Below are positions 48,091 through 64,000 of a DNA stretch of 64,000 nt, one piece after another; position 1 is the stretch's first letter, and every line of letters begins with the position of its first letter. The notes below the pieces were generated by a model. The model did no database searches. It saw only the letters and a list, made by a program, of their open reading frames with translations, and was not told the origin of the DNA. The DNA comes from Minisyncoccota bacterium. GTDB taxonomy: Bacteria > Patescibacteriota > Minisyncoccia > Phycocordibacterales > PALSA-1337. The position numbers were made by a program, and so were the translations under genes. The stretch spans positions 1,048 to 65,047 of the forward strand of contig JBAYJB010000004.1 of NCBI GenBank assembly GCA_041665325.1. The letters are read 5' to 3'.

Positions 48091-50382
48091 TTATAGCCTT
48101 CTTGCCTTGATCCTGAGCGAGTTAGAGACCACCGATACGCTCGAGAGCGCCATGGCCATGCCGGCAAAGACGGGGCTCAAAAGCCAGCCGAATATAGGGT
48201 AGAAGATCCCGGCAGCCAGCGGGATGCCGACGATGTTGTAGATGAAGGCCCAGAAGAGGTTCTGCTTGATGCCGCGCATGGTCATCTTGGAAAGTTTGAT
48301 GGCCTTGACGAGCTTCGAGATATCTCCGCCGAGAAGCGTGATGCCGGCCGATTCGATAGCCACATCCGTGCCAGTTCCCATGGCGATGCCGACATCGGCT
48401 TGAGCCAGAGCGGGAGCGTCGTTCACTCCGTCTCCGGCCATAGCCACGACCCTACCCTGTGATTGGAGTTCCTTGATCTTCTCGAGCTTGTTCTGGGGCA
48501 ACACATGCGCGACCACGTCATCTATACCGACAAGCGACGCCATGTATCGGGCCGCCTTCTCATCATCGCCAGTGAGCATCACCACCTTGATACCGAGCTT
48601 GTGGAGGTCGGCCACGGCTTGCTTCGATGCCACCTTGATCTCGTCGGCCACCATGACAAATCCAAGCACCTTCTCCCTAGTCGAAAGGATGACTGGCGTT
48701 TTACCCTGAGCGGTGAACTTTTCTATCGTCGCGACATCGAATGCAACACCGAGATCATTCATGAGCTTCGCATTGCCAACATGGTATTCGGCGCATCCGA
48801 TCGTTCCCTTCAATCCCTTGCCTTGTATGGCTTCGAAGCCAGAAACATCTTCGATCTTGATGCCCTTCCCTTCAGCATAGCTCACAACAGCATGTGCGAT
48901 GGGGTGCTCCGACTTCTTCTCCAGAGAGGCCAGAATAGATACAAGGACATCTTCTGCAAGCCCGGAAAGGTTCCGGATATCTACCAGAGTCGGCTTGCCG
49001 ATAGTGATAGTGCCGGTCTTGTCTACGACCACGGTATCCACCTTGTGGAGCTTCTCGAGCGTGGCGGCATCCTTGATCAGGATGCCTTCCTTGGCCCCCT
49101 TGCCTACCCCCACGATGATCGCCGTCGGCGTAGCCAAACCGAGGGCGCAGGGGCAAGCGATGACCAGGATGCCTACAAACGAGACGAGCCCAAGCGACAA
49201 GGCTTGCGATAGACCGAGCGCGCTCGTGCCGATGATAAGCCAGGACCCAAGAGTCAGGAAGGCGATGACGAGCACGATCGGCACAAAGACGCCCGAGATC
49301 TTGTCTGCCAAGGCCTGGATCGGCGCCTTACTGCCCTGGGCATCTTCGACCATCTTGATGATCTGGGCGAGAAGCGTCTCCGATCCGACCTTGGTCGCCT
49401 TAAATATAAATGACCCACTGGTGTTGATGGTACCGGCGACCACACTGTCTCCAACTTTCTTCTTAGCCGGCATCGGTTCGCCGGTAACCATGGATTCGTC
49501 GACAAATGACGCGCCGTCTACGATCACCCCGTCGACGGGGATCTTTGCCCCCGGCTTGACGATGATGTGATCGCCGTGCCGCACATCACCAACCGAGATC
49601 TCCATCTCCTTACCGTCGCGGACGACTAGGGCGGTCTTGGCCTGAAGATTGAGCAGTTTCTCGATGGCATCGCCGGTCTTCACCTTGGAGCGGGCCTCGA
49701 GATATTTGCCGAGCGCGATGAAAGTGATGACGACGATGGTAACGTCATAATAAGTCTGATCGACATTGATGAAGGGTTTGAGGACATCTTCAAATGCGGT
49801 CACGGCAAAGCTATAGAGATAGGCGGCTACTGTGCCGATGCCGATGAGCGTGTCCATATTGGCCTTGCCATAGCGGAGAAATCGATAGAAACCAAGCAGG
49901 TACGGCTTGCCTACGACGAACAGCGTATATGTAGCCAAGAGGGGCAAGAGATGGTGGAAAAACTCCCCCACTGTATAACTCATCTCTGGCACTGATCCGT
50001 ATCCCGCCAGGATATCCCAACCCATCACGAAGATGCTAAGTATGGCCAATGGGATCGCCGATATGACTTTGGCTTTCATGGCCTTGATCTCGGCGAGCTT
50101 CTCTTTCTTGGACTGACCGATGCCCGTGTGGGCGGCATGCTCATCGGGCGACATGCCCATGCCTTCGGCCGTCTCGGTGACGAGCGAGTAACCGAACTTC
50201 GCGATCTTCTGCGAGAGCTGCTGCGGAGTGACCTTCTCTGGGTCGAGAGCTAGCTTCGCCGTCTCGGTACCATAGTTCACTTCGGCAGATTGGACGCCGG
50301 CTGTCTTCTTGAATGTCTTTTCGATGATGCCGGCGCAGGAAGCGCAATGCATGCCCCTCACCTTGTATGTTTGCTTGTGCAT
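48091..50382 (-). CDS. copA: Copper-translocating P1B-type ATPase
   Basis: N-terminal HMA domain [12 protein letters not shown] motif, DKTGT motif, 763 aa. Confidence 0.95.
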
Positions 50383-50385
50383 GGT

Positions 50386-50697
50386 TTATTTCCTTTTGAG
50401 CTTATAGACGCGGAGGATCTCCCCGACGGCCTTGGCGGTCTGTCCCTTGGCGACTTGCTTGGTGACACAACCGCTCAAGTGGTTCTCGAGCAGAAGATCT
50501 TCGATATTGGACAATCCCTGTTTCACAGCTGATGTCTGGGTTATGACATCGATGCAGTAAGTATCCTTCTCGATCATCCTCCCAAGGCCACGGACCTGGC
50601 CCTCGAGGAGCTTGAGGCGACGGATGACCTTGTGCTTGTTGCTATCTTTCATGTATTTCATGCCAGAAAGTATATACCCCCCTAGGGGTATCGTCAA
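50386..50697 (-). CDS. csoR: CsoR/RcnR-family metal-sensing transcriptional repressor
   Basis: RLKLLEGQVRGLGRMIEKDTYCIDVITQTSAV...HLSGC (W-x-Y-z motif with Cys and His ligands). Confidence 0.8.
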   Translation of the reverse strand: MTIPLGGYILSGMKYMKDSNKHKVIRRLKLLEGQVRGLGRMIEKDTYCIDVITQTSAVKQGLSNIEDLLLENHLSGCVTKQVAKGQTAKAVGEILRVYKLKRK

Positions 50698-51530
50698 TGG
50701 TATATACTGAAACAGTGAAACGCCTATACCTCCTATCCATGGTCATGGTGCCATTGCTACAGATCACGCCGGCCAATATATACCAGGGCGAGCCGGTCAT
50801 GGTCACTGTCCAGGGCACGACCTCGGTCCCTGTGAAGAGCGTACCTCCCTTATTGTTCTTCATGTATCAGGGCAGACCCACAGCTCTCTATGGGAACGAT
50901 ATAAACAAAACACCGGGCACAACTACGGTCGTCGCCACATTCCGGGACGGCTCGCGGGCATCCGGGTCATACCTCGTTCTGCCCCGATTGCGGCCACAGG
51001 AATCCATGCCCGTCCCAGTCGCGATCGGCGGTAATAGCCCGGCCAATCAGACACGGATCCTTTCCATTCTGGCCAAGGAGAATGCCGAGCTCGCCGCGGT
51101 CTATTCCCGCAAAGACAAAGCTCTTTGGACCAGCGCCTTCGCCTATCCGGTCGCCGACCCATTTGTGACCGATCCATACGGCTATGACCGCGACAGCGGC
51201 CTCAGTGTAATCACTCACAAGGGTTCCGACTTCCGCGCCGCGACTGGCACCCCGATCCACGCCGTCAATCGCGGCGTAGTCAGGGTGGCGAAGACCTTCG
51301 TGATGTACGGCAACACCGCCATCGTCTACCACGACCTCGGCCTCCTCTCGATGTATATGCATCTCTCGAAGCTCGCCGTCGTGCCCGGACAGCTGGTCGA
51401 GAAGGGTCAGCTCGTGGGCCTCTCCGGCATGACCGGCTACGCCGAAGGCCCGCATCTGCATCTTACTGTGCGCGTGGGCGGCATATCGATCGACCCCATG
51501 AAATTCTTCGCTTTGTTCGGAGTGAGATAA
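50697..51530 (+). CDS. M23 family metallopeptidase (LytM-like)
   Basis: HKGSDF...GTPIHAV...GPHLHLTV: HxxxD and HxH motifs. Confidence 0.85.
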   Translation: MVYTETVKRLYLLSMVMVPLLQITPANIYQGEPVMVTVQGTTSVPVKSVPPLLFFMYQGRPTALYGNDINKTPGTTTVVATFRDGSRASGSYLVLPRLRPQESMPVPVAIGGNSPANQTRILSILAKENAELAAVYSRKDKALWTSAFAYPVADPFVTDPYGYDRDSGLSVITHKGSDFRAATGTPIHAVNRGVVRVAKTFVMYGNTAIVYHDLGLLSMYMHLSKLAVVPGQLVEKGQLVGLSGMTGYAEGPHLHLTVRVGGISIDPMKFFALFGVR

Positions 51531-51546
51531 GAGCGAGTATCGATAT

Positions 51547-51834
51547 ATGAAAGCGCCCAGAATGATCGACATCAAAGTCCCACCTGACCTGCGCAAGGCT
51601 CTCGCGGCTGCCCCGCAGGCCCGGAACACGTGGACGGACATCACACCGATCGCGCGCCGGGACTGGATCCTCTGGATCATCACGGCCAAACTAGCGGAGA
51701 CACGCAAGCGCCGGATCGAGAAAGCCTGCAACATGCTCTCCCGCGGCAAGCGCCGAGCATGCTGCTTCGGCGGCATAAACTGGCTTATGAAGACGGGCCA
51801 GTTGCCTGTTCGTAGTAGTCGCAAGGGCTCTTAA
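51547..51834 (+). CDS. YdeI/OmpD-associated family protein
   Basis: WTDITPIARRDWILWIITAKLAETRKRRIEKACNML matches the YdeI/OmdA pattern. Confidence 0.6.
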   Translation: MKAPRMIDIKVPPDLRKALAAAPQARNTWTDITPIARRDWILWIITAKLAETRKRRIEKACNMLSRGKRRACCFGGINWLMKTGQLPVRSSRKGS

Positions 51835-51882
51835 ACTTTTCCAATCTTGATTTTGTTAGCCGTTTGGAAAGAAGCTGGAAAC

Positions 51883-52344
51883 TTACTTCCAAATCTCCCA
51901 AATCATCATAAGCACCACAAACCATAAAACCAAAATCGCATATGCAGGAAATTGTGAAGTGAATCTGTCGAAGAAATCTGATTCATGCTTCTCACCTCTA
52001 ATTCTCCCAGACAACAGGTACCAAATCGATTGCTTCAAATTAAGGGAAACATCTTTATTGACATTATTTAATGCATTTAGTTCTTTCATTGCTTTTGTAT
52101 TCAATCCGATAGTTTCTGAATAATAGATCTGAAGAGACAGTATCATCAGAAGCAGTAAAATTGTTGCCAAATACTTTATTGTAATCGTAACAGAAAATAA
52201 ATCACCCGCACTTCCTAATGCAAGCAAGGCGATCATTAGACCAGACAATATGGGAAGTATTGCAAACTTGTCTCTTGTTGATTGAACAGATAGGTCTAAG
52301 AGATACTCTTTAAATTTTTGTTTATTATAATTTTCTTGTGACAT
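51883..52344 (-). CDS. Hypothetical membrane protein, low GC
   Basis: Two or three TM helices and about 33% GC. Confidence 0.45.
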   Translation of the reverse strand: MSQENYNKQKFKEYLLDLSVQSTRDKFAILPILSGLMIALLALGSAGDLFSVTITIKYLATILLLLMILSLQIYYSETIGLNTKAMKELNALNNVNKDVSLNLKQSIWYLLSGRIRGEKHESDFFDRFTSQFPAYAILVLWFVVLMMIWEIWK

Positions 52345-52392
52345 CTGGACTGTTTTATTTGCTGGCAGTTTGGTTCGATGTTGGAACTAACT

Positions 52393-53535
52393 TCACTGAT
52401 AAATCTCAGGGATCTTCAGTCCAGTAAAATGATCTGTGAGTAGTTTGCCTGTTAGCATCCCGTTAGTAAGTCCGTTTCCTGAATGACCAAATATTTCATA
52501 ATATCCATTATTATTTTGAATATGTGGGTGATAATCGCTTGTAGAAACCATGAGCCCACTCCATCGATGGGAAATTCTAAGACCCTCTTTCTTGAGCGTT
52601 GGGAAGAATGAGAGTAGTTTTGTAATCTGCCAATTTTCGTTATCAATCAACTCTTCTTTGGTTGGATTTATCGGAAGATTCTTACACGCAAATAGCCGGA
52701 TACCTATTTTTCTACAAGAGATGTATTCCTCGCCAGTCGTCCACAACATGCCTCCGATTTGCCAATCGATCTCATCCCATTTTTCTTTTGATAGTGGCTC
52801 AGTTACTACGGCTTGTGAGCGTACTATCTTCACTCCTTGTCCCATATTAGAATTAGCACTTTCGATTGCTACAACAACTCTCTTTGAGCTGATCACCCCT
52901 TCTAAAGTAATGACTTTGTGGGCATCGAAATCAAGAGCGGGAGTATGTTCGTATATTCTTAATCCCGATCGTTCGGCCACCTCAGCAAGCCCTCTGATGA
53001 ATTTTACCGGGTGAAGCAAAAGATCCGACGGGTTGAACAAGGCTGTGCTAAATGGACTTCTCTCTAACTGCCTCCCGTTCTCTATCATTTCGCATACAAA
53101 GCCGGACTCCGTTCTCTTTTCTGCCTCCATACGCAATTGTCTGTCATCACTATCGCTACGGCTCACATACAAGCTTCCTGGATTTTCTAGATCGCAATCA
53201 ATCTTATTATCTTTTATGACCGACTCCACTAGCTTCCTCGCTTCTATAGTATGCTCCCACAAATCTTTCGCTATCTTTAAACCAAACTCCTCTATCGCTT
53301 CATTGAAATCCAACTCCATCCCCTCAACTACCATTCCACCATTCCTTCCGGCTGAACCAAAAGCGATGGTATCTTTTTCAATCAAAATGGTTTTAAACCC
53401 TGCTTTGACACAATGATAAGCAGTAGAAACACCAGTGATTCCTCCTCCGATAACAACCACGTCCGCATCTGCATCCTCCTTAAGAGCGGTACGAGAGGTG
53501 TATGGCATGTCTAACCAATAGGGTAAATCTTTCAT
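52393..53535 (-). CDS. FAD-dependent oxidoreductase (DAO/glycine oxidase-like)
   Basis: N-terminal dinucleotide-binding motif VVVIGGGITG; low GC. Confidence 0.8.
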   Translation of the reverse strand: MKDLPYWLDMPYTSRTALKEDADADVVVIGGGITGVSTAYHCVKAGFKTILIEKDTIAFGSAGRNGGMVVEGMELDFNEAIEEFGLKIAKDLWEHTIEARKLVESVIKDNKIDCDLENPGSLYVSRSDSDDRQLRMEAEKRTESGFVCEMIENGRQLERSPFSTALFNPSDLLLHPVKFIRGLAEVAERSGLRIYEHTPALDFDAHKVITLEGVISSKRVVVAIESANSNMGQGVKIVRSQAVVTEPLSKEKWDEIDWQIGGMLWTTGEEYISCRKIGIRLFACKNLPINPTKEELIDNENWQITKLLSFFPTLKKEGLRISHRWSGLMVSTSDYHPHIQNNNGYYEIFGHSGNGLTNGMLTGKLLTDHFTGLKIPEIYQ

Positions 53536-53589
53536 ACAATTATTATACTCTGATTTACTGACGTGTGGGACGAAGTCGGAACTTCAATG

Positions 53590-54483
53590 TCATTCTCTCA
53601 ACAAAATCACTCCGAGTACCAAAATTGCAAAAAATAGGATCTTTTTAAGAAGATGTCCTTTGTGTAGATCTTCTTTGAATAATGATGGGAAGAAACCTCG
53701 ACCTAACCAAGCAAAGATAAGCAGGTAGAAAGGCGAGATCATAGTTATTCCCTTAACCACGCTAACCGAGGTCAGTGAGATTGCGTATGCTTCGGCTGCT
53801 AAACCAAAGAAGGTGAGCATCTCTTCTAGTAAAAACAGAGGCGATAGTCTTATGAATGTCGGCAGTGATGCCTTTATATCATGCCGTACGCGAGGAAAAG
53901 CCAGTAGTGATAAAGCTAAGACCAGGGCAATGACCGCCTCGCCGCCTATCGCAGTGCTAACCGATACCCCCTTATCAAATAGCAGCTTGAATAACACTCC
54001 TTCAAACGCAAGAATGAATGCCGCAAGCCCTATGTGCCACATGGCTTTGCTGAACCTGAACTTGGCTTTAGTGTGATGCAACCCAAGCGCTATCACGCTC
54101 GTAACGATCAGAGCGATTCCGATATACTGGACCAGATCAAGCCTCTCTCCGACGATAAGAAAAGCCAGTACTGGAATAAATAGCCTGCCTATAGCGAAAA
54201 ACGAAATTGCTATAGAGGTATCATCAGATTGTAACCCTTTGTAGTATGGATAGAGATACCCAATACTGATGAAGCCTAGAATGACAAAGATGGGCAACGT
54301 ATGAAGGGGTGGGATTTGCGGTGGATCAAATAAGAAAAGAACGGGTATGAAAATAAGATTGAAAAGAGAGGTATAAAATACCAACGTAAGAAGCTTCTTG
54401 AATTTTTTGTTCGCTAGAAAGTTGTCAAAAACTTCTGCGATCGAGTACAAGGCCGGTGCCAGAAAAGCAAAGAATAGCCACAT
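53590..54483 (-). CDS. Polytopic membrane protein, probably a DMT/EamA-like transporter
   Basis: About 10 TM helices and internal duplication; low GC. Confidence 0.5.
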   Translation of the reverse strand: MWLFFAFLAPALYSIAEVFDNFLANKKFKKLLTLVFYTSLFNLIFIPVLFLFDPPQIPPLHTLPIFVILGFISIGYLYPYYKGLQSDDTSIAISFFAIGRLFIPVLAFLIVGERLDLVQYIGIALIVTSVIALGLHHTKAKFRFSKAMWHIGLAAFILAFEGVLFKLLFDKGVSVSTAIGGEAVIALVLALSLLAFPRVRHDIKASLPTFIRLSPLFLLEEMLTFFGLAAEAYAISLTSVSVVKGITMISPFYLLIFAWLGRGFFPSLFKEDLHKGHLLKKILFFAILVLGVILLRE

Positions 54484-54503
54484 GTGCGAATTATATCACA
54501 GGT

Positions 54504-54845
54504 CTAATTAACCAAGAGTGATATCAAATAATCCTTGATTACAAAAACCAATATTACAAAACATGCTGTACCCAGTAGTGACATTTTTGAATAATTGTCT
54601 TCATGTGTCTTGCCTCTCGATAGAAGAAAGGTCAGTTCATCTATAAACAACCCTAACCCGATTGCGCATAAAATAATCGAGTTAAAAAGATATCCGATTA
54701 TTAATATGATGAGACCATACACATAATGATGAACCCTGAATCCAAAAATAGTAGGGCCCGGTGTCGGACAAACAAAAAGAAAAATACGCGCTATGAGAAT
54801 AGTCGCGAGAAAAATTGTAAAAAACATCTGGCTAGTTTCTAACAT
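54504..54845 (-). CDS. Small membrane protein (start trimmed to avoid the tRNA-Gln)
   Basis: Hydrophobic ORF; the N-terminal part of the track ORF is the antisense of the tRNA and the repeats. Confidence 0.4.
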   Translation of the reverse strand: MLETSQMFFTIFLATILIARIFLFVCPTPGPTIFGFRVHHYVYGLIILIIGYLFNSIILCAIGLGLFIDELTFLLSRGKTHEDNYSKMSLLGTACFVILVFVIKDYLISLLVN

Positions 54846-54851
54846 GATTTG

Positions 54852-54922
54852 CTGCGGGACTTGGACTCGAACCAAGATAACGACCTCCAGAGGGTCGCGT
54901 CCTACCATTAGACGATCCCGCA
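54852..54922 (-). tRNA. tRNA-Gln (anticodon CUG)
   Basis: Folded by hand: U1-A72 acceptor pair (typical of bacterial tRNA-Gln), D-arm GTCT/AATGGTA/GGAC, anticodon loop CUCUGGA, T-arm CTTGG/TTCGAGT/CCAAG; CCA is not encoded. Confidence 0.8.
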
Positions 54923-55004
54923 AAGTTAAACAACGGACCCTCGGACCATTCATGATCCCGCAAAGTTAAACAACGGACCCTCGGACCATTCATGATCCCG
55001 CAAG
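54914..55004 (-). repeat. 2.3 tandem copies of a 40-nt unit (GATCCCGCAAAGTTAAACAACGGACCCTCGGACCATTCAT); each unit is a deletion derivative of the tRNA-Gln 5' half, and the first copy overlaps the tRNA 5' end
   Basis: Perfect 40-nt tandem identity, with unit alignment to the tRNA acceptor, D and anticodon arms. Confidence 0.85.
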
Positions 55005-55044
55005 TACCATACAAAATACGCTAAAAAGACCGAATATTCAAGGG

Positions 55045-55326
55045 TTAGCCAAAGAGCTTGGAATGACTACCAATGCGCCATAAGATGACACTCGCAGTCG
55101 ACTGATCTATCCTATATATCACAAGTAGATCGAAACTCAGGTGATATTCGCGATATTCAGACATGTCACCTCCCAGAGCATGGTCTTGATAGATATCATC
55201 GAGCCTCACACCCATAGCCAAAGTTCTAATAGTATATGCAAACTTCCCACGGTCAAAAAAACCGGACTTAGCGAGTTTCCGGAATTCTTTTTTGAACCTT
55301 CTGCTGTATATGACCGCGTATATCAA
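55045..55326 (-). CDS. yafQ: Type II toxin, YafQ/RelE family mRNA interferase
   Basis: HALGGDMSEYREYHLSFDLLVIYRID...WRIGSHSKLF matches the YafQ pattern (H.L.G...Y.E.H...D.LLIY...R.GTH..LF). Confidence 0.75.
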   Translation of the reverse strand: MIYAVIYSRRFKKEFRKLAKSGFFDRGKFAYTIRTLAMGVRLDDIYQDHALGGDMSEYREYHLSFDLLVIYRIDQSTASVILWRIGSHSKLFG

Positions 55327-55599
55327 CTAGGACATCATATCATCCATCATTTCTTCGACGCTAGAGAATCTCTTGCTAAGCTTTTCAGTTCTTACTTGAC
55401 GTAAGAACTTCTGCTCTTGCGCTACAGTATAACCATTTACAGTCAATCCCTTGATAGGTAGAGACTTGCTCCTTACCACCTGTGTGAGAAAAACCTTGAT
55501 CGCCGACGAGAGGTCCATACCCAGCTCCTTCAAGATCTTCTGGGCCTTGGCCTTGGTGGATGCGTCGATGCGCAGTTGTAGTGTGGTATCCATGCTCAT
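55327..55599 (-). CDS. dinJ: Type II antitoxin, DinJ/RelB family
   Basis: LQLRIDASTKAKAQKILKELGMDLSSAIKVFLTQVVRSKSLPI: ribbon-helix-helix N-terminus typical of DinJ. Confidence 0.75.
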   Translation of the reverse strand: MSMDTTLQLRIDASTKAKAQKILKELGMDLSSAIKVFLTQVVRSKSLPIKGLTVNGYTVAQEQKFLRQVRTEKLSKRFSSVEEMMDDMMS

Positions 55600-55605
55600 G
55601 GCTCC

Positions 55606-55633
55606 AGTATAGACGATGTACGTACATTGTCAA
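55606..55633 (-). promoter_or_regulatory. Consensus promoter TTGACA-N16-TATACT with the 12-nt palindrome ATGTACGTACAT in the spacer (putative TA operator). The ATG lies 6 nt after the -10 box.
   Basis: Reverse strand TTGACAatgtacgtacatcgtcTATACTggagccATG. Confidence 0.6.
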
Positions 55634-55645
55634 TACACGCCAGAT

Positions 55646-57454
55646 CTAGGCAAACAACTCTTTCTTGATCGAGATCTTCTTTGAACCGGGTTTCGCGGCT
55701 TCTTTGGCATCCGGCTCTGCATGCCTCTTGGATTGGTTGTCCTTGTTCCGCACCTTGGCCGCCTTCATGAAGGCCGTAAATAAGGGGTGCGGCATGAGTG
55801 GGCGAGCGAGGAGTTCGGGATGGAACTGGGTACCGAGGAAGAATGGGTGCTTGGAACGCGGTAGCTCGGCGATCTCCATGAGCACGCCATCGGGCGACTT
55901 GCCCGAGAAGACCAGACCTCCCTTCTCCAGGCGCTCGACATACTTGGGATTGACCTCGTAGCGGTGGCGATGACGTTCCTTGATGAGCGTGGTCGGCCGC
56001 TTGAGCCTCTCTCCATCGAAGATCGAGTAGGCATCCTGCGCGATTGAGCCCTTGGCGAGCTTGGCCGGGTAGAGGCCGAGACGCATCGAACCGCCGTACT
56101 TGCCTTCGGCAATGAGCTTCTTCTGGTCCGGCATGATGTCGATGACTGGATGTGGCGACTTTGGGTCGATCTCGGCGGTATGAGCGCCCTGGAGGTGCAG
56201 GACATGCCTGGCATACTCGATAGTCATGAGCTGCATGCCATAGCACAGTCCGAAGTACGGGATGTTGTGCTTCCTAGCATATCCGATGACATTGAGCTTG
56301 CCCTCTATACCGCTCTCACCGAAGCCCCCCGGTACGATGATGCCGTCCAGATCGTCGAGTGACGCATAGTCTGGGTCCTTACTCTCAAAATCGCGAGAAT
56401 TGATGCTGTGGATGACCGCCTTGACCCCATTGGCATAAGCCGAGAATTTGATGGCCTCAAGGACCGAGATATAGGAATCGGAGAGGATGAAGTCCCCGGT
56501 ATTGAAATATTTACCTACTACACCGATCGAAACTTCGTGGCGGGTGTGATTCTTGACGCCGCGAGCCATCTTCTTCCAGTCCAGGAAGAACTTGTTGGTC
56601 TTGCGGTCAGAAATATTCAGGAGCTCTAGGATGATCTCGCCCAAGCGATCATGCTCGAAGTTGACCGGCACGTCATATATACTCTCGATGTCCGGCGCCG
56701 AGACTACCCGCTTCGGCAGGATATTGCAGGCGGCGGCGATCTTCTCCTTGCGCTTCTGGTCGAGCGGGATCTCCGAACGGCCGATGATGATATCGGTATT
56801 GACGCCGTACGAGGCCAGTTGGTTGACGGCATTCTGGGTCGGACGCGTCTTCATCTCCCCCAACTTCGAGGGGATAGGCAGGTACGAGACCATCACGAAG
56901 GCCACATCGTGCGGGTGGCGGATCTTGAGAGTGCGGGCGGCCTCGATGAACATGATGTTCTGGTAGTCGCCGATGGTGCCGCCGATCTCGATGATGGAGA
57001 TATCGGACTTGTTGACTTTGACGGCATGCTCGAACCGGCCGATGATCTCGTCGCGGATATGCGGGATGGCTTCGACACACTTACCGCCATAGCCGAGCGC
57101 ACGCTCGCGCTCGATGACATGCTTATAGACCATACCGCTTGTGACATAGTCTGCATCGGTCAGGTCGCGACCGAGGAAACGCTCATAGTTACCCATGTCC
57201 TGGTCGGTCTCTAGACCGGAATTGAGCACGAATACTTCACCATGCTCGGTCGGATTCATGGTGCCGGCGTCTACATTCAAATACGGGTCGACTTTGACCA
57301 GGTTGACGCGGAAACCCTTGGCCGAGAGGAGCGTGCCGATCGAGGAGGTGGCTACGCCCTTCCCCACGCCCGACATCACGCCGCCGAGGACGAAAATATA
57401 CTTATGGTGAGTTTTACCCTTGGATATCCGCGACTTTCTGGCCGGGCGTTTCAT
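55646..57454 (-). CDS. pyrG: CTP synthase
   Basis: N-terminal synthetase domain (YIFVLGGVMSGVGKG), a C-terminal GATase with the catalytic Cys (GLCYGMQ), and TACAAT 6 nt upstream of the internal ATG chosen as start. Confidence 0.93.
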   Translation of the reverse strand: MKRPARKSRISKGKTHHKYIFVLGGVMSGVGKGVATSSIGTLLSAKGFRVNLVKVDPYLNVDAGTMNPTEHGEVFVLNSGLETDQDMGNYERFLGRDLTDADYVTSGMVYKHVIERERALGYGGKCVEAIPHIRDEIIGRFEHAVKVNKSDISIIEIGGTIGDYQNIMFIEAARTLKIRHPHDVAFVMVSYLPIPSKLGEMKTRPTQNAVNQLASYGVNTDIIIGRSEIPLDQKRKEKIAAACNILPKRVVSAPDIESIYDVPVNFEHDRLGEIILELLNISDRKTNKFFLDWKKMARGVKNHTRHEVSIGVVGKYFNTGDFILSDSYISVLEAIKFSAYANGVKAVIHSINSRDFESKDPDYASLDDLDGIIVPGGFGESGIEGKLNVIGYARKHNIPYFGLCYGMQLMTIEYARHVLHLQGAHTAEIDPKSPHPVIDIMPDQKKLIAEGKYGGSMRLGLYPAKLAKGSIAQDAYSIFDGERLKRPTTLIKERHRHRYEVNPKYVERLEKGGLVFSGKSPDGVLMEIAELPRSKHPFFLGTQFHPELLARPLMPHPLFTAFMKAAKVRNKDNQSKRHAEPDAKEAAKPGSKKISIKKELFA

Positions 57455-57532
57455 GCCTCTATTGTAATCAAGCCCCAAGCCTCTTGTCTACTTGGACAAG
57501 TATCCTGATATGTGTCACTAGGAAAAATAAGT

Positions 57533-58498
57533 TTATACCCTCAGATACCTCCTCGCCGCTATATAGCTAGAGATACCGCCCAGAATGATGCCAGAGCCCA
57601 AAATGATGCCAAATAGCTGGCCGAAATTCCTGGTGAAATAGTCCGAAAAGACATTTACGGCAAAAGCGAAGTTCGCGGCAGTGTCCACCCCGGCAAAACG
57701 CAGGATCAGCGCATCGCTCCAGTAGGCCACCGCTGCAATGACTATGAGCGCGATGATGCCAGCGACGATGCCGTACATCATGCCCGAGATCACTAATGGT
57801 CCGCGAACATATATATTCGACGCTCCGACGAGCTTCATCACCGAGATCTCGTCGCGCGCCGTGAAAGTGATAAGGCGGATGGTGTTGAAGACGACGACGA
57901 CGGCTACGATAGCAAAGATGATCGTGATGATGATGCCGGTCTGTTCCACCGCCGGGATGATCCGGCCTAAGCGGTCGATGATCAGCTTGTTCTCCTGATA
58001 GTTGATCTTGTCGATGATCGGAGCTCCGGACTCGTCCGTCGGGCTCTTATTCTCCAGATAATTGGCGATGCCGCCATACTGGCCGGGGTCCTTGGCTTTG
58101 ACATTGAGCGAGGCGGGGAATGGATTGCTGCCAAGTTCCTGGAGGCCCTGCATGATGAGCGTGTTGTTCTGCCATTTGGTCTGGAAATCCGCGAGCGCCT
58201 GGTCGCGCGAAACAAAGACAGTCGAGTCTACTTCGGCGAGATCGTCGATCTCCCCTCTCAAGGCCAGGATGCTCTGCTCCGAAGCCGAAAGGGAGAAATA
58301 GATGTTGATATCCACCTGGCTCTTCACTTCCTTGAGCATGGCCTGGCCGAAGGCCCCTGCGAAGATGAGCGCCCCGAAGGAGAGGAGCGTGATCGTCAGG
58401 ATCACGATCGCGGTGAATGACAGGAAGCCGTTGCGCCAGAAGTTGACGAAGCCGGTCTTGAATATTCTCTTGGGAGTGGTGAGGATCATGATCTTCAT
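57533..58498 (-). CDS. ftsX: Cell-division ABC transporter permease FtsX
   Basis: 4 TM segments with a large periplasmic loop; located downstream of ftsE. Confidence 0.85.
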   Translation of the reverse strand: MKIMILTTPKRIFKTGFVNFWRNGFLSFTAIVILTITLLSFGALIFAGAFGQAMLKEVKSQVDINIYFSLSASEQSILALRGEIDDLAEVDSTVFVSRDQALADFQTKWQNNTLIMQGLQELGSNPFPASLNVKAKDPGQYGGIANYLENKSPTDESGAPIIDKINYQENKLIIDRLGRIIPAVEQTGIIITIIFAIVAVVVVFNTIRLITFTARDEISVMKLVGASNIYVRGPLVISGMMYGIVAGIIALIVIAAVAYWSDALILRFAGVDTAANFAFAVNVFSDYFTRNFGQLFGIILGSGIILGGISSYIAARRYLRV

Positions 58499-58504
58499 TA
58501 TAGC

Positions 58505-59185
58505 TTACAGGACGTATTTGCCGTGCTTGTCGTCGAGCACGATCTTGCCGTTCTTCATGGTGATGATGCGGCCGCCGACCGTGTCGACTACGCCCTTGTT
58601 GTGGGTGGCGAGGAGCACCGTCGTGCCAAGCTCGTTGATCTTCTGCAGGATGCGGATGATCTCGAAAGTGTTGGCCGGGTCGAGGTTGCCGGTCGGCTCG
58701 TCGGCAATGATTACATCGGGCTGAGTGACGATAGCCCGGGCGATGGCCACACGCTGGCTCTCGCCGCCGGACAATTCCCTGGGAAAATTCCAGATCTTGT
58801 GGCCGATATCGACGAGTTCGAGGACATGCGGCACATCAGCGGCGATCTCGGCATCGGTGCGCCCGGCCGCTTCCATGGCGAAAGCGATATTCTCGTAGAC
58901 GGTCTTTGTGGGGATGAGGCGGTAATCCTGGAAGACTGTGCCGATACGGCGGCGCAGCCGGTTGGTCTCCTTCTTGTTCAGACGGTGGATGTTCGCGGAC
59001 TCAAAAAAGACCGCTCCCTCGGTCGGCCGATCTTCGGCGATGAGGAGGCGCATGAGCGTGGTCTTGCCGGCGCCGCTGTGGCCGACAATCGTGACAAATT
59101 CTTTGGGCTCCACGCCAAAACTGATATCTTCCAGGGCCTTGGTCTTGTCTTTGAAGACTTTGCTGACTTTGTCGTAATAGATCAC
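58505..59185 (-). CDS. ftsE: Cell-division ABC transporter ATPase FtsE
   Basis: Walker A GHSGAGKT, the ABC signature LSGGESQR and Walker B. The printed sequence has GTG at 59184-59186 where the track ends the ORF at 59185; I treat the start codon as probably GTG. Confidence 0.9.
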   Translation of the reverse strand: MIYYDKVSKVFKDKTKALEDISFGVEPKEFVTIVGHSGAGKTTLMRLLIAEDRPTEGAVFFESANIHRLNKKETNRLRRRIGTVFQDYRLIPTKTVYENIAFAMEAAGRTDAEIAADVPHVLELVDIGHKIWNFPRELSGGESQRVAIARAIVTQPDVIIADEPTGNLDPANTFEIIRILQKINELGTTVLLATHNKGVVDTVGGRIITMKNGKIVLDDKHGKYVL

Positions 59186-59192
59186 TTATGGA

Positions 59193-60080
59193 TTATAACA
59201 TCTTCTCGGCCTCGATGAACTCTTGGATTTCCCCGTCCAGAACCTTGTCTACTTGGGAAGTCTCGACATCCGTGCGGTGGTCTTTGACCATCTTGTATGG
59301 GTGCAAGACATATGAGCGGATCTGATTGCCCCATTCGATCGAGGTCGTCGAGGAGAGCTGCATACCCTTCTCTTTGGCGATGCGCTCGTCCTCTGCCCGC
59401 TTCCAGAGCTTGCCGCGCAGGATGTCCATGGCCTTCTCGCGATTCTGTGCTTGCGAGCGCTCGGAAGTGACGTGGATAGAGATGCCTGTCGGCTTGTGGA
59501 GGAGGCGCACGGCAGTCTCGCGCTTGTTCACATTCTGGCCGCCGGGGCCGCCAGACTTGGCAATCGAGACTTCGATGTCGGCGTCGGCAATGACGATGTC
59601 GCTCGAGGAAGTCTTCTCAAACTTGGGGATGACCTCGACGAGCGAGAATGACGTGTGCCGCTTGGCATTGGAATCGAACGGTGAGACGCGGACCAGACGA
59701 TGGACGCCAGACTCATTCTTGAGCGTACCATAGACGTCTTTTCCTTTGATCTCGACGGTGAGGTTGCGGTAGCCGCCGTGATCGTTGGTATTCTCATGGA
59801 TGACTGTCCAGCCCCAGCCGTTGCCATCGGAGTATCGGCGATACATGCGCAGGAGCATGGCCGAGAAGTCCTCGGCATCGTCTCCACCAGCGCCGGAAAG
59901 GATCGAGAGCAGGGCGTCGCCCTTGTCGTATTTGCCGATGCCTTCGAGCTCGTTCTTAAGATTCTGGAGCTCCCTGACGGCCGCCTGGGCCTTGCCCTTG
60001 TCGGACCAAAAGTCCCCCGAGGCCATCTCGGTCTCCAGTTCGGCGATGCGCTTGGCGATGTTTTCTTTGTTGTCTGCCAT
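59193..60080 (-). CDS. prfB: Peptide chain release factor 2, single continuous frame (start MADNKEN at 60080)
   Basis: SPF tripeptide (VRVSPFDS) and the GGQ motif. The N-terminal 27 aa of the track ORF run through tRNA-Thr and are rejected. Confidence 0.9.
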
Positions 60081-60100
60081 AGTGAGTGCTTCTAATTCCT

Positions 60101-60176
60101 TGGAGCCGAAGGCCGGGATTGAACCGGCGACCCCATCTTTACGAAAGATGTGCTCTACCAACTGAGCTACTTCGGC
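60101..60176 (-). tRNA. tRNA-Thr (anticodon CGU), CCA encoded
   Basis: Cloverleaf folded by hand: acceptor GCCGAAG/CTTCGGC, anticodon loop TTCGTAA, T-loop TTCAATC. Confidence 0.85.
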
Positions 60177-60190
60177 GGTGACTCCACACT

Positions 60191-60266
60191 GGAGCCGATG
60201 GCCAGAATTGAACTGGCGACCTACTCCTTACCATGGAGTTGCTCTACCAACTGAGCTACATCGGCG
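60191..60266 (-). tRNA. tRNA-Thr (anticodon GGU), CCA encoded
   Basis: Cloverleaf folded by hand: anticodon loop ATGGTAA. Confidence 0.85.
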
Positions 60267-60315
60267 GATTGGTACTATAAAATGGGACAAGAAAGGAACT
60301 CACAAACGAACCGAG

Positions 60316-60389
60316 CGCGCCCGATGGGACTCGAACCCACGACCTCTCCCGTGACAGGGGAGCGTTCTAGCCAGCTGAACTACGGGCGC
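60316..60389 (-). tRNA. tRNA-Asp (anticodon GUC)
   Basis: Cloverleaf folded by hand: anticodon loop CTGTCAC, T-loop TTCGAGT. Confidence 0.85.
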
Positions 60390-60430
60390 ATGGAGAGTAA
60401 TGTATCAGAAGAACCGCTAAAATCAAAATG

Positions 60431-60504
60431 TGTCGGCGGCAGGACTTGCACCTGCGACCTAGGGCTTATGAGTCCCTCGCTCTAACTACCTGAGCTACGC
60501 CGAC
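60431..60504 (-). tRNA. tRNA with a CAU anticodon (Met elongator, or Ile2 via lysidine); the T-loop TGCAAGT is unusual
   Basis: Folded by hand: G28-G30/C40-C42 run in the anticodon stem with a 31-39 A/G mismatch, and G at position 55. Confidence 0.6.
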
Positions 60505-60587
60505 GTGGAATGAGCGCTTCGTAACAATAAACGAAAAAACTCATACTTGCAACGACCTCTCCGTTGTGGCACAATGTCTCTCTCACG

Positions 60588-60662
60588 CCGCGGGGTAGGG
60601 TAACGGTAACCCGTCAGGCTCATAACCTGAAAATTGGCGGTTCGATTCCGCCCCCCGCAACC
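60588..60662 (+). tRNA. tRNA-Met (anticodon CAU) with a C1xA72 mismatch (initiator-like); CCA encoded
   Basis: Folded by hand: acceptor CGCGGGG/CCCCGCA with an unpaired C1/A72, anticodon loop CTCATAA, T-loop TTCGATT. Confidence 0.7.
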
Positions 60663-60663
60663 A

Positions 60664-61791
60664 TTATTTAATGTCCGTGAAAGAGCCGTTTGCCAAGACT
60701 TCTCTCCAAGTTAATCCGGTGTTTATATTCTGACAAGATGAGTCAAATTTTATCTCGCCCGTAATCCCTTGGTATGCGGGCATCTTTACGAGCGCCTTGG
60801 CGATTTTCTGTGGGTCTCCTCCCTCTTCCTGAATAGCCGCCACAAGTATGTTGAGACTATCGTAAGTCAATGCCCCAAGTAATATTGGTACAGCATTATA
60901 TTTGGTCTGGTAAGATTGCGCATACCTCATCGCATTTGGATTACGATTTAACGCAACTTGAGGAGTATAGATATAATCTACAAATCTTGTCCCATTAGCC
61001 ACAGTGCGATCTTTCATATTGGGGCTAGTAATAGTCCAGATGTCGCTCAAAATAGGTTTATCCCAACCGAGTTCCGCCAACTGTTTGAACATTGGTTCGG
61101 GCGTTATGTTGTTTATCACAACTAAGGCATCAACGTCTTTCTCGTATTGAAGGAGTTTCAGAACGTTTGACCTTAAATCTCCTGATGTCTGATCATACAA
61201 TTCGACTTTAACAATCTTACCCGTGAACGAACTAACAATAGCATCCCTCATTACTGTCCCATATTCATTATTGGGCACAAATATAGCCAACTTATTATAA
61301 GACAGTTCACTGGCATATGCAGATACGCTCGGCCCGAGGATATCTGCAGTCAAGCCAACCCTACAGGTAAGAGGACTGGTATCCGTAAAGACTGGTGTGG
61401 TGGCTGACTGAGCGAAAATCATGATTCCATCCTGAACAGCCTTCTCTCTGATTGCAGCAACAACAGGACTTCCATCGGCTATAATGATCCTTGCACCTTT
61501 CAACTTAAGAGACTCATAACCGCTCAATGAGGTCTTGGGGTCATATTTAGAATCTTCGTATACGAGTTGGTACATACTTGTATCAATACCCGCAGATCGG
61601 AGATCCTCCAGCGCCATAGAGATAGCGTTCTTTTGAACCTCCCCGGCAACAGCAATTGGCCCTGATAATGGAGTAAGTACTCCGATCTTTACCCCTTCCC
61701 TATCAGACAGATTCGATTGTTTATTAACACTTATAATAATGACCGCGAGAGCAATAACAATCAATACGGTAATCGAAATGTTTCTTTTCAT
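60664..61791 (-). CDS. Periplasmic substrate-binding protein, type I PBP (Leu/Ile/Val-binding, LivJ-like), with no ABC permease or ATPase genes adjacent
   Basis: Signal/TM segment and GVLTPLSGPIAVAGEVQKNAISMALEDL, a pattern I read as typical of LivJ-type binding proteins. Confidence 0.75.
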   Translation of the reverse strand: MKRNISITVLIVIALAVIIISVNKQSNLSDREGVKIGVLTPLSGPIAVAGEVQKNAISMALEDLRSAGIDTSMYQLVYEDSKYDPKTSLSGYESLKLKGARIIIADGSPVVAAIREKAVQDGIMIFAQSATTPVFTDTSPLTCRVGLTADILGPSVSAYASELSYNKLAIFVPNNEYGTVMRDAIVSSFTGKIVKVELYDQTSGDLRSNVLKLLQYEKDVDALVVINNITPEPMFKQLAELGWDKPILSDIWTITSPNMKDRTVANGTRFVDYIYTPQVALNRNPNAMRYAQSYQTKYNAVPILLGALTYDSLNILVAAIQEEGGDPQKIAKALVKMPAYQGITGEIKFDSSCQNINTGLTWREVLANGSFTDIK

Positions 61792-61845
61792 GATTGAATT
61801 TAAACACTCGGAAATTATTTTATCAAGCGCTTATCAACACCCACG

Positions 61846-62508
61846 TTATATATAATAGAACTCCTCGAACACGCGCTTGTAGCGCTGGATGGCTTCGTTG
61901 GCCTCATGGTGAGACATCGGGAAGCTACTACCGTCGTGGGCGATGCGGTTCCGGACCTTGTGAGCCTCCCAAGCGTCATCGATATTCTTGAATTCGCCCG
62001 GCTGGACGCGCTTGAGCATCTCCCCAACCCCGTCACCCTGATAACCGAGCCCGCGGAGCACATCCTCGAGCATCGTGTCCGCTTCCAGGATGGCCTGCTT
62101 CCAATCATTCTCATTCTGTGAATTGAGGAGGTTGGCGGCCTTGTCCCAGCGGACCGACAGGTCGCGATTGCCTTCACCGGGCACCTTCTCGAAGGCCGGT
62201 TCGACCTTGAGGTCGAACTTCTCCACTTCCCGAGCTCGGATGCGCTTGAGGCCTTCGATGCAATAGACGATACCGATGAGACAGAAGAGTGAGAATGGGA
62301 TCGACAGCACCACGAAGAAGCTCAGGGTGCCCTTACCGAAGCGCTCCAGAGTCGGGAGAAAATGGTTGAGCGAACCGAGCGATGGGGCAAGCAACCGGTC
62401 GAGATATGCGTAGATCGAAGGCCAGAGGGCGACCAGGATCACGATGATCACGAATATTCCGACTCCCGGAGCTACGACATTTTCTTTTTTCTTCTTATCT
62501 TTATCCAT
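61846..62508 (-). CDS. Membrane-anchored protein with a C-terminal HEPN-like (DUF4145-type) domain carrying an Rx4H motif
   Basis: 2 N-terminal TM helices, then a helical C-terminal domain containing RNRIAHDG (R-x4-H). Confidence 0.45.
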   Translation of the reverse strand: MDKDKKKKENVVAPGVGIFVIIVILVALWPSIYAYLDRLLAPSLGSLNHFLPTLERFGKGTLSFFVVLSIPFSLFCLIGIVYCIEGLKRIRAREVEKFDLKVEPAFEKVPGEGNRDLSVRWDKAANLLNSQNENDWKQAILEADTMLEDVLRGLGYQGDGVGEMLKRVQPGEFKNIDDAWEAHKVRNRIAHDGSSFPMSHHEANEAIQRYKRVFEEFYYI

Positions 62509-62532
62509 AGTAAAAGTGCGCCCGAGATATCT

Positions 62533-63969
62533 CTATTGTATCTCACCCAGGAATTCCTTGCCCGCCTCGAAGAGCGTGGCCTCATCGCCATGTCGAGCCG
62601 TGAGCTGGAGGCCTAGCGGCAGTTGTTTGCCATCTCTTTCTGCCATGCCGCATGGGACGGATATGGCCGGCATGCCCGTCAGATTGGCCGTCACTGTGAA
62701 TATATCCTCGAGATACATAGCGACCGGGTCGCTCCCCTTCTCGCCGATCTTGAAGGCTGGCGAAGGAGTCGTCGGAGTAGCGATGAGATCCACGGACTCG
62801 AAGGCTTTGTTGAAGTCCTGGGTGATCAGACCTTTCACGGCATTCGCGCGGTTGTAGTACGCATCATAATAGCCGGATGAGAGGACATATGTCCCGAGCA
62901 GGATGCGGCGGATCGATTCTTTGCCGAATCCGGCACGGCGCGTCTTGAAATAATCCTCTATGCCGTCTTTGCCATCCATATGGAGACCGTATCTGACTCC
63001 GTCGAAACGAGCCAGGTTGGAAGAGACCTCGGCAGGCATGATGACATAATAGACCGGCAGAGCATGGGCAGAATTGGGCAGATCGATCTGCTTGATCTCA
63101 TAGCCCTTACTCTCGAATGATCTGATCGCCGAAGCAAATGCTTCGCTGACAGAACTATCTAAGCCTCCAAACTCCAGGAAAGCTTTCGGCACACCGATGA
63201 CTGGTTTCTTCCGACCGATGCGCTCACTTTTGTAAGTAGAACCATCTATCGTCGTGCCGTCTTTGCCATCCTGACCATGGATGGCGTTGTGTACGATCTC
63301 ACAATCTGCGACTGTCTTGCCGATCGGACCGATCTGGTCGAGCGAAGATCCCATAGCGATGGCTCCGTAGCGAGAGACTCCCCCATATGTCGGCTTGAAT
63401 CCGACCACCCCGCAAAGGCTGGCAGGTTGTCTGATGGAACCACCGGTGTCCGTACCGAGAGCAAACATGGCTCCATCCATCGCCACAGCCGCGGCTGAAC
63501 CACCTGAAGAGCCGCCGGCTACACGCGAAAGGTCATGAGGATTCTTCGTCACTCCGTAGGCAGAATTCTCCGTCGAACTTCCCATAGCAAATTCATCCAT
63601 ATTGGTGCGGCCAAGGAAGACGACGCCCTCTTCCTTCAGCTTGGCGATGACTGTCGCATCGTAGGTGGCATGATAATCTGCGAGGATCTTCGAACCTGCA
63701 CTAGCGATCTTGCCCTGAATGAGCAGGTTGTCCTTGGTCGCGCACGGGATGCCAGTCAGGAGAGTCGCTGTACCGTCCTTGAATCTCTTGTCTGCGGCCT
63801 TGGCCTGATCGAGTGCATCATCGAATACTTCCAGATACGCATTTATATCTTTATTCTTCGCCTTGATCACCTCCAAATAAGCTTGGGTAAGTTCGACGGC
63901 TGAAAATTCGCCGGCTTTCATGGCGGCGTGAGCTTTACGGATGGTCAGGTTGTGTAGGTCTATTTTCAT
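62533..63969 (-). CDS. gatA: Glu-tRNA(Gln)/Asp-tRNA(Asn) amidotransferase subunit A
   Basis: Amidase signature GGSSGGSAAAVA with the Ser-cisSer-Lys triad context, 478 aa. Confidence 0.93.
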   Translation of the reverse strand: MKIDLHNLTIRKAHAAMKAGEFSAVELTQAYLEVIKAKNKDINAYLEVFDDALDQAKAADKRFKDGTATLLTGIPCATKDNLLIQGKIASAGSKILADYHATYDATVIAKLKEEGVVFLGRTNMDEFAMGSSTENSAYGVTKNPHDLSRVAGGSSGGSAAAVAMDGAMFALGTDTGGSIRQPASLCGVVGFKPTYGGVSRYGAIAMGSSLDQIGPIGKTVADCEIVHNAIHGQDGKDGTTIDGSTYKSERIGRKKPVIGVPKAFLEFGGLDSSVSEAFASAIRSFESKGYEIKQIDLPNSAHALPVYYVIMPAEVSSNLARFDGVRYGLHMDGKDGIEDYFKTRRAGFGKESIRRILLGTYVLSSGYYDAYYNRANAVKGLITQDFNKAFESVDLIATPTTPSPAFKIGEKGSDPVAMYLEDIFTVTANLTGMPAISVPCGMAERDGKQLPLGLQLTARHGDEATLFEAGKEFLGEIQ

Positions 63970-64000
63970 CAGAGTAGGAATTGACTAATTTTTCGTAAAA

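Follow-up and report, generated by a model that had tools for sequence, protein, structure and literature searches.

A probable local tandem duplication of the leader and the first nine tRNA bases between the promoter and the tRNA-Gln(CUG) gene of a Paceibacteria-type bacterium

A 40-nt tandem repeat adjoins the tRNA-Gln(CUG) gene in the stretch of DNA analyzed here (64,000 nt in total, hereafter the window). With moderate confidence, we interpret it as a species-specific local tandem duplication of the leader together with tRNA nucleotides 1-9, situated in what would be the transcribed 5' leader of the gene and probably neutral. The unit is present 2.25 times with 100% identity between the copies, the array lies between a conserved promoter motif and the gene, and, as judged by alignment, only the first 9-10 nt of the unit (T followed by TGCGGGATC) are demonstrably derived from the tRNA. 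The features of the locus are the following:

54851..54922, minus strand: intact tRNA-Gln(CUG) gene (ARAGORN; Rfam RF00005, 58.9 bits versus a gathering score of 29)
54924..54963, minus strand: tRNA-proximal full unit, reading TTGCGGGATC + ATGAATGGTCCGAGGGTCCGTTGTTTAACT on the tRNA strand, 100% identical to the other full unit
54964..55003, minus strand: promoter-proximal full unit, with TGCGGGATC at 55002-54994, 10 nt past the -10 box
55004..55012, minus strand: leader bases GTATGGTAC, directly 3' of the -10 box
55013..55041, minus strand: putative sigma-70-type promoter of tRNA-Gln, with -35 box TTGAAT (55041-55036), a 17-nt spacer and -10 box TATTTT (55018-55013)
55045..55599, minus strand: relB/dinJ-yafQ toxin-antitoxin pair (Pfam YafQ_toxin, PF15738, 6.4e-22; RelB, 4.4e-11)
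about 51883-55600, on both sides of tRNA-Gln: lower-GC block, 41-45% GC versus about 55% in the flanking DNA

Tandem Repeats Finder reported the array at window positions 54914-55003 with a period of 40, 2.2 copies, 100% matches and a score of 180, and returned the 40-nt unit beside tRNA-Gln exactly as it had been quoted in a preliminary description of this DNA. The same array was recovered as family D4 in a separate repeat scan of the window, and its perfect self-match of 50 nt at offset 40 is beyond chance. The units stand head to tail, with no differing spacers between the copies. On the tRNA strand, the -10 box is followed by GTATGGTACT, then by TGCGGGATC ATGAATGGTCCGAGGGTCCGTTGTTTAACTT twice, and then by TGCGGGATC GTCTAATGG, which is the beginning of the tRNA. 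Every unit opens with TGCGGGATC, and bases 1-9 of the gene (54922-54914) double as the 3'-most copy of the repeated 9-mer, so that the array indeed adjoins the tRNA and carries its 5' end, as first proposed. The promoter-proximal unit starts with the tenth base of the leader (T at 55003), and the leader GTATGGTAC resembles the 8-mers ATGGTCCG and AGGGTCCG within each unit. The 10-mer TTGCGGGATC (T plus TGCGGGATC) occurs three times in the window, all at the array (0.3 expected), and the 31-nt remainder of the unit (hereafter the 31-mer) is confined, within the window, to the two full units. The tRNA-Gln itself is almost identical to that of the relative L043, from which it differs by a compensatory change in the T stem.

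On the minus strand, the genes prfB, ftsE, ftsX, pyrG, relB/dinJ and yafQ lie upstream of the array, and the array and tRNA-Gln are followed by genes for a small membrane protein, an EamA transporter, a DAO oxidoreductase and another membrane protein. The toxin-antitoxin pair thus sits between pyrG and the tRNA-Gln promoter, the stop codon of yafQ being 3 nt upstream of the -35 box. Within the lower-GC block, whose 41-45% GC was measured over 52000-56000, are two unannotated membrane proteins, the EamA transporter, the DAO oxidoreductase and relB-yafQ. Among relatives, pyrG and tRNA-Gln are separated by anything from ~50 nt to >4 kb, which marks the interval as a gene-insertion hotspot. These relatives, as identified by PyrG, are Patescibacteria of Paceibacteria (Parcubacteria) type; the best PyrG identity reached 76-78% among contigs from genomes and metagenomes, and 82% in a search of 5.8 billion proteins, and no intermediates between 82% and 100% identity were present in the collections searched. 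Exact-protein look-up of the full-length 93-aa YafQ ORF returned no record, and look-ups of a 56-aa version of YafQ and of the small membrane protein returned only the L004 contig. Elsewhere in the window (60101-60267), tRNA-Thr(CGT) and tRNA-Thr(GGT) form an 89-nt tandem pair with 82% identity, within a Thr-Thr-Asp-Met / Met cluster found in synteny in many of the relatives.

The position of the array relative to the promoter is central to its interpretation. The candidate promoter TTGAAT-17-TATTTT has 8 of 12 consensus matches, which is under the threshold of a generic promoter scan, and we infer its function from comparison with 75 related loci having tRNA-Gln(CUG) downstream of pyrG. The motif TTGAxx-17-TAxxxT precedes tRNA-Gln in 41/75 of them, with a 17-nt spacer in all but one, and the closest relatives and the window have a longer promoter consensus, CTTGAATA...TAGCGTATTTTGTAnGGAC, in common. 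The -10 box is usually separated from the tRNA start by 8-42 nt in the related loci, the short leaders being those of L135 and L143 (8 nt), L059 (9 nt), L093 and L047 (10 nt), and L014 and L044 (12 nt); in L168 (79% PyrG identity), which is among the closest loci carrying the tRNA, pyrG is followed by the promoter, a 12-nt leader and the tRNA, and the relB/yafQ pair is absent. In the window, the first copy of TGCGGGATC starts 10 nt past the -10 box and the true tRNA 90 nt past it. Since the first copy stands at the short-leader distance, the ancestral start would have stayed by the promoter while the intact gene was displaced by 80 nt (two units). Within the unit, no internal promoters were flagged by the scan, the best candidate being TTGTTT-17-AATGGT with 6 of 12 matches. 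Comparison of the same locus in related genomes, as proposed in the preliminary description, revealed no array or other tandem repeat touching the tRNA (0/76 related loci), i.e., the arrangement is not conserved outside this species.

All data on the array are metagenomic, and short tandem repeats are sometimes mis-assembled, so we considered whether the array is an artefact of assembly. The identical array with the identical copy number (2.25) is present in three further assemblies: L003 (ERZ27249449) and L004 (ERZ27247322), both built by MEGAHIT with k=141 in different ENA analyses, and L169 (JGI 3300028028). L003 differs from the window by three SNPs in 12.9 kb, two of which lie directly beside the array and make it a distinct haplotype; L004 differs by 22 mismatches, every one in pyrG. 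The array (90 nt) is shorter than k=141, and therefore the L003 and L004 assemblies resolve its copy number. In addition, the Logan k=31 contigs L001 and L002, from two further runs and samples, stop exactly 31 nt into the array, which is the point at which a repeated unit forces a branch in the de Bruijn graph. The agreement of the assemblies and the k=31 breakpoints at the predicted k-mer indicate that the repeat is real, and the artefact explanation is effectively refuted. No difference in copy number was found among the window, L003, L004 and L169, a comparison of near-identical strains only (at least 99.6% identity); the copy-number check suggested earlier thus gave 2.25 copies in every assembly that resolves the array, and ongoing slippage was not observed. 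As a side observation, the mismatches of L004 all fall within 56648-57392, 18 of the 22 being in 127 nt (57266-57392) near the 5' end of pyrG, and the 4.9 kb downstream of them are identical to the window; this cluster looks like a short recombination tract within the population.

The unit had initially been described as derived from the 5' half of tRNA-Gln, with the 31-mer taken as what deletions had left of the D and anticodon arms. The identity of the first 9-10 nt to the tRNA is confirmed. Aligned to tRNA nucleotides 10-72, the 31-mer scores no better than shuffled sequences (P=0.20 for local and P=0.54 for global alignment), and random genomic 31-mers match the remainder of the tRNA equally well 15-32% of the time. 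When the alignment is anchored right after the 9-mer, 10 of 15 positions match the D arm with one gap (P=0.016-0.034, post hoc), which we regard as a weak similarity; similarity to the anticodon arm was rejected, being at chance level versus both shuffles and random genomic 31-mers. Given this chance-level alignment with a weak D arm only, the description as a tRNA 5' half is not upheld beyond the first 9-10 nt. A reading of the units as iterated tRNA-half pseudogenes, in which the acceptor strand, D arm and anticodon arm of tRNA-Gln were copied and then decayed, could draw on the D-arm match and on the genuine 5' fragments reaching nucleotides 24-26 in the relatives L038, L113 and L148. However, if the unit were homologous throughout, its divergence would be uneven, with no changes in the 9-mer but about five, together with an indel, in the 13 nt that follow, which uniform decay of one duplicate would not give, and the supposed anticodon-arm part is better explained as two copies of a leader motif and a T-rich tail. 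We consider this reading improbable.

The interior of the unit instead points to the leader itself. It contains two tandem 8-mers, ATGGTCCG|AGGGTCCG, which are copies of the 7-mer that follows the -10 box. The leader after the -10 box is GTATGGTACT in the window and GTAGGGTCCT in L003, and relatives carry GTA(T/G/A)GGAC at this spot. The L003 leader 7-mer AGGGTCC has an exact match inside the unit (chance probability roughly 0.006), and in the window the corresponding comparison is ATGGTCC versus the leader ATGGTAC. Of the three SNPs that distinguish L003 from the window, two (55009 T/G and 55005 A/C) are 4 nt apart in the 10-nt leader beside the array and turn ATGGTAC into AGGGTCC, the 7-mer found within the unit. 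The location of both in the leader motif suggests one multi-base event, probably a single template switch or conversion between the leader and the array. That the interior copies a local leader motif points to local slippage and away from foreign DNA. Roughly 15 nt of the unit have no identifiable source besides tRNA nucleotides 1-9 and the leader 7-mer. A search for a source of the 31-mer covered the remaining window sequence, about 165 related loci (blastn-short versus shuffles), the upstream regions of the 75 tRNA-Gln loci (max-over-loci P=0.78) and viral contigs, and no match rose above chance. Kinship of the 31-mer to leaders of relatives was considered and is not claimed, the best single value (L010, P=0.027) being uncorrected for 10 tests.

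The following scenario could account for the array. An earlier event would have placed a second TTGCGGGATC some 40 nt ahead of the gene, the duplicated segment extending from the leader bases just past the -10 box through tRNA nucleotide 9. Later, a slipped-strand or unequal-recombination step between the TTGCGGGATC direct repeats may have produced the two perfect units; slippage as a source had been proposed at the outset and remains plausible, as the unit interior copies the leader 7-mer. The perfect identity of the two units indicates a recent origin, and the promoter-proximal copy would be the older, rearranged one. A one-step duplication fails to reproduce the 4-nt junction ATGA and the shortened promoter-proximal copy, so that extra events are needed. 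In the resulting arrangement, the promoter would face a truncated pseudo-start of the tRNA with the intact gene 80 nt further downstream, and the array would be transcribed as a leader of about 90 nt that is removed by the RNase P cut at the true 5' end. We infer transcription of the array, its removal by RNase P, the slippage mechanism and neutrality from the arrangement of the locus, and the repeat itself is probably without function, neutral or nearly so. Like minisatellites generated by slippage, the array is head-to-tail, spacerless, made of perfect full units, built on and flanked by a 10-nt direct repeat, species-specific and located in non-coding DNA; unlike them, it has a boundary inside a tRNA gene, each extra copy carries a pseudo tRNA 5' end, and copy-number polymorphism is absent among the available assemblies.

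The pyrG-tRNA-Gln(CUG) locus of Paceibacteria repeatedly gathers partial tRNA copies and is clearly recombinogenic in this clade. Exact tRNA matches of at least 10 nt within 400 nt were counted at 76 tRNA-Gln loci (75 relatives and the window), giving 15 direct matches downstream, nine inverted matches downstream and five direct matches upstream, against expectations per class of about 1.8 for 10-mers and 0.1 for matches of at least 12 nt. Upstream 5' fragments between the promoter and the gene are present in six loci (L013, L052, L038, L113, L148 and L085). In L013 (7960-8120), tRNA nucleotides 1-12 are followed by a 39-nt insert and then by nucleotides 10-18, and a motif of about 22 nt, CTCCTCGCAyGCTCGGAGCTTC, is repeated after each tRNA piece. 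The leader tRNA pieces of L013 and L052 (8995-9078) are broken at the same place, after GTC at nucleotide 12; their inserts (39 and 13 nt, respectively) are unrelated, and both have CTT at the start and CAG at the end. Three of the loci have a nested arrangement, referred to as type B:

L038:7845-8085, nested type B arrangement
L148:4510-4745, nested type B arrangement
L113:8330-8500, nested type B arrangement

The type B order is the promoter, tRNA-Gln nucleotides 1-24/26, a hairpin ATGAAAG..CTTTCAT, a conserved arm CCGGTCCCGAAGGGAATCGC.., and the intact tRNA-Gln; in L038 and L148, the 3' remainder (nucleotides 29/35-72) of a second tRNA-Gln follows downstream. A covarying stem (ATCGCGG/CCGCGAT versus ATCGCCG/CGGCGAT) encloses the intact tRNA, and the anticodon of the outer copy in L148 is CCG. 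Kinship of the 31-mer to the type B arms is not claimed, with P values that depend on the scoring used (0.03-0.05 or 0.3-0.7). In L085 (3662-4100), the D loop of tRNA-Gln is split by an insert of about 365 nt with inverted ends GCCCCGCCAAATT / AATTTGGCGGGG, which encodes a 60-aa GIY-YIG ORF (Pfam, 7e-9) and a complete tRNA-Gln; the D stem of the latter shows a compensatory change relative to the split copy, from GTC/GAC to GGC/GCC. This is the pattern expected of a nuclease cassette with an immune replacement gene. Separately, L133 carries a perfect tandem repeat (49 nt x 2.4) located 73-192 nt downstream of tRNA-Gln; apart from it and the window array, the 78 tRNA-Gln genes examined have no tandem repeat within 300 nt.

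These observations bear on an origin of the array from a mobile element, which the preliminary description had raised as repeated integration or excision at an attachment site. In such a scenario, an element that had inserted on the 5' side of the tRNA gene brought its own tRNA nucleotides 1-9 and pushed the resident 5' end towards the promoter; it was then mostly deleted, leaving 31 nt, and the scar was duplicated. The 5' fragment in the window does lie next to the intact gene on its upstream side, codirectional with it and where the ancestral gene would have started, which is the configuration expected of islands displacing a 5' tDNA fragment, a minority in Islander (159/3919; PMC4383910); tandem arrays of displaced tDNA end fragments are likewise known under the Islander principle (PMC4383910). 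The status of the locus as a clade hotspot, with 5' fragments between promoter and gene in the six relatives above, 3' tRNA fragments downstream in about 15 related loci and a nuclease ORF in the L085 insert, is also in keeping with a mobile origin, as are the toxin-antitoxin pair and lower-GC genes flanking the tRNA and the slight resemblance of the 31-mer to type B upstream arms at the lower of its P values. However, Islander islands have kilobases of DNA, including an integrase gene, between the fragment and the gene, whereas here the interval is 31 nt and no integrase, transposase or nuclease gene lies within it; no integrase is found among the neighbours either (YafQ, RelB, PyrG, the small membrane protein, EamA and the DAO oxidoreductase). 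Island fragments usually reach the gene end from a crossover in the anticodon or T loop, and no such identity block is present at the array, where identity stops after nucleotide 9 and the fragment, at 9-10 nt, is far below the usual size. No 3' tRNA-Gln fragment that could mark the end of an island occurs across the 64 kb, the 31-mer is without terminal inverted repeats and absent from viral contigs and all related loci searched, and the copies of the leader motif within the unit argue for a local origin. The attachment-site proposal is therefore not sustained, and we regard a mobile-element scar as unlikely. A transposon with target-site duplication was rejected as well: a direct repeat of 9-10 nt does exist, but the 31-nt insert lacks inverted ends and is far too short. 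Identical short sequences at regular spacing also recall CRISPR arrays; however, the "spacers" here are identical, there are only three repeats, no cas genes are found among the neighbours, and the repeat is the tRNA's own 5' end, in agreement with the original view that this is not a CRISPR array.

A function of the repeat has also to be weighed. It could act as a regulatory leader that throttles RNase P processing, with the additional TGCGGGA copies competing for the 3' acceptor strand, or serve as a source of small RNAs or decoys, or as a protein-binding array. UGCGGGA copies can in principle pair with the pre-tRNA 3' UCCCGCA, with the true acceptor pairing retained in the minimum free energy fold, and the arrangement is fixed across all assemblies seen, which would fit such roles. 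On the other hand, neither the 90-nt leader (z=-1.08) nor the entire pre-tRNA (z=-1.00) folds more stably than shuffled sequence, and a search of the whole window against Rfam 15 identified only six tRNAs, with no family match for the array. The array is confined to one species, its identical units suggest a recent origin with no sign of long-term selection, and nothing ties it to the neighbouring YafQ, a link that the preliminary description had itself called speculative and for which no evident basis was found. Taken jointly, these functional possibilities appear very unlikely, and we continue to favour a neutral local duplication of the leader and tRNA start.

The survey of relatives also revealed a conserved structured element of about 145 nt (120-180 nt overall, 120-160 nt for the seven copies behind tRNA-Gln listed here) downstream of tRNA-Gln(CUG) in related Paceibacteria, referred to as type A, at the following sites:

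L075:9734-9879, plus strand: type A element, 20-55 nt after tRNA-Gln
L155:5470-5605, plus strand: type A element, 20-55 nt after tRNA-Gln
L110:6179-6323, plus strand: type A element, 20-55 nt after tRNA-Gln
L116:8176-8326, plus strand: type A element, 20-55 nt after tRNA-Gln
L042:9737-9897, plus strand: type A element, 20-55 nt after tRNA-Gln
L080:3359-3496, plus strand: type A element, 20-55 nt after tRNA-Gln
L119:5816-5937, plus strand: type A element, 20-55 nt after tRNA-Gln
L151:863-986, minus strand: type A match just after tRNA-Met(CAT), with a closing stem that copies the 3' end of tRNA-Met, not of tRNA-Gln
L117:437-569, minus strand: type A match with no tRNA adjoining

In the RNAalifold consensus of four sequences, 16 of the 48 predicted pairs show compensatory changes. 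The closing stem reproduces the acceptor and T-stem strands of the adjoining tRNA, a single hairpin occupies the place of the D and anticodon arms, and two conserved hairpins (ACCTTG..CAAGGT and GAAnC-TGTAA-GnTTC) lie within the enlarged "T loop"; some copies end in CCA. No match to type A was found in Rfam 15, and literature searches on tRNA-fragment or tRNA-like elements in CPR bacteria returned nothing relevant; as far as these sources show, types A and B are undescribed. All nine sites above were matched by a covariance model (R1) comprising the closing stem that copies the tRNA 3' end and hairpins P2-P4. A core that is common together with ends that are tRNA-specific suggests mobility or templated capture of tRNA ends, and type A may represent an undescribed tRNA-like RNA or a small mobile element. 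In the window, the model gave no match at E<=1 with default filters, and with the filters off the best hit in 50000-64000 (9.4 bits) was the tRNA itself.

The window array has in common with the type A and type B elements the same gene, tRNA-Gln(CUG) downstream of pyrG, and the same theme of tRNA-end copies placed between the promoter and the gene or just after the gene. However, types A and B are 120-180 nt long, conserved across genera and supported by compensatory base changes, whereas the window unit is 40 nt long, lacks significant structure, is unmatched by the type A model and is only weakly like the type B arms. In our estimate, it is improbable that the array is the smallest footprint of an undescribed clade-wide process in Paceibacteria, with the unit as a degenerate type-B-like upstream arm. 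If this were true, small elements would copy the ends of tRNA genes, above all of tRNA-Gln(CUG), and lodge before or behind the gene, and the type A mimics, the nested type B arrangements and the GIY-YIG cassette would be related forms.

As a local duplication, the array would illustrate that a tRNA gene tolerates triplication of its first nine bases and leader between the promoter and the gene, and that annotators relying on tDNA-fragment logic can mistake very small products of slippage for att sites. For the biology of Paceibacteria, the array is chiefly of value in pointing to the type A element and to the partial tRNA copies at the pyrG-tRNA-Gln(CUG) locus.
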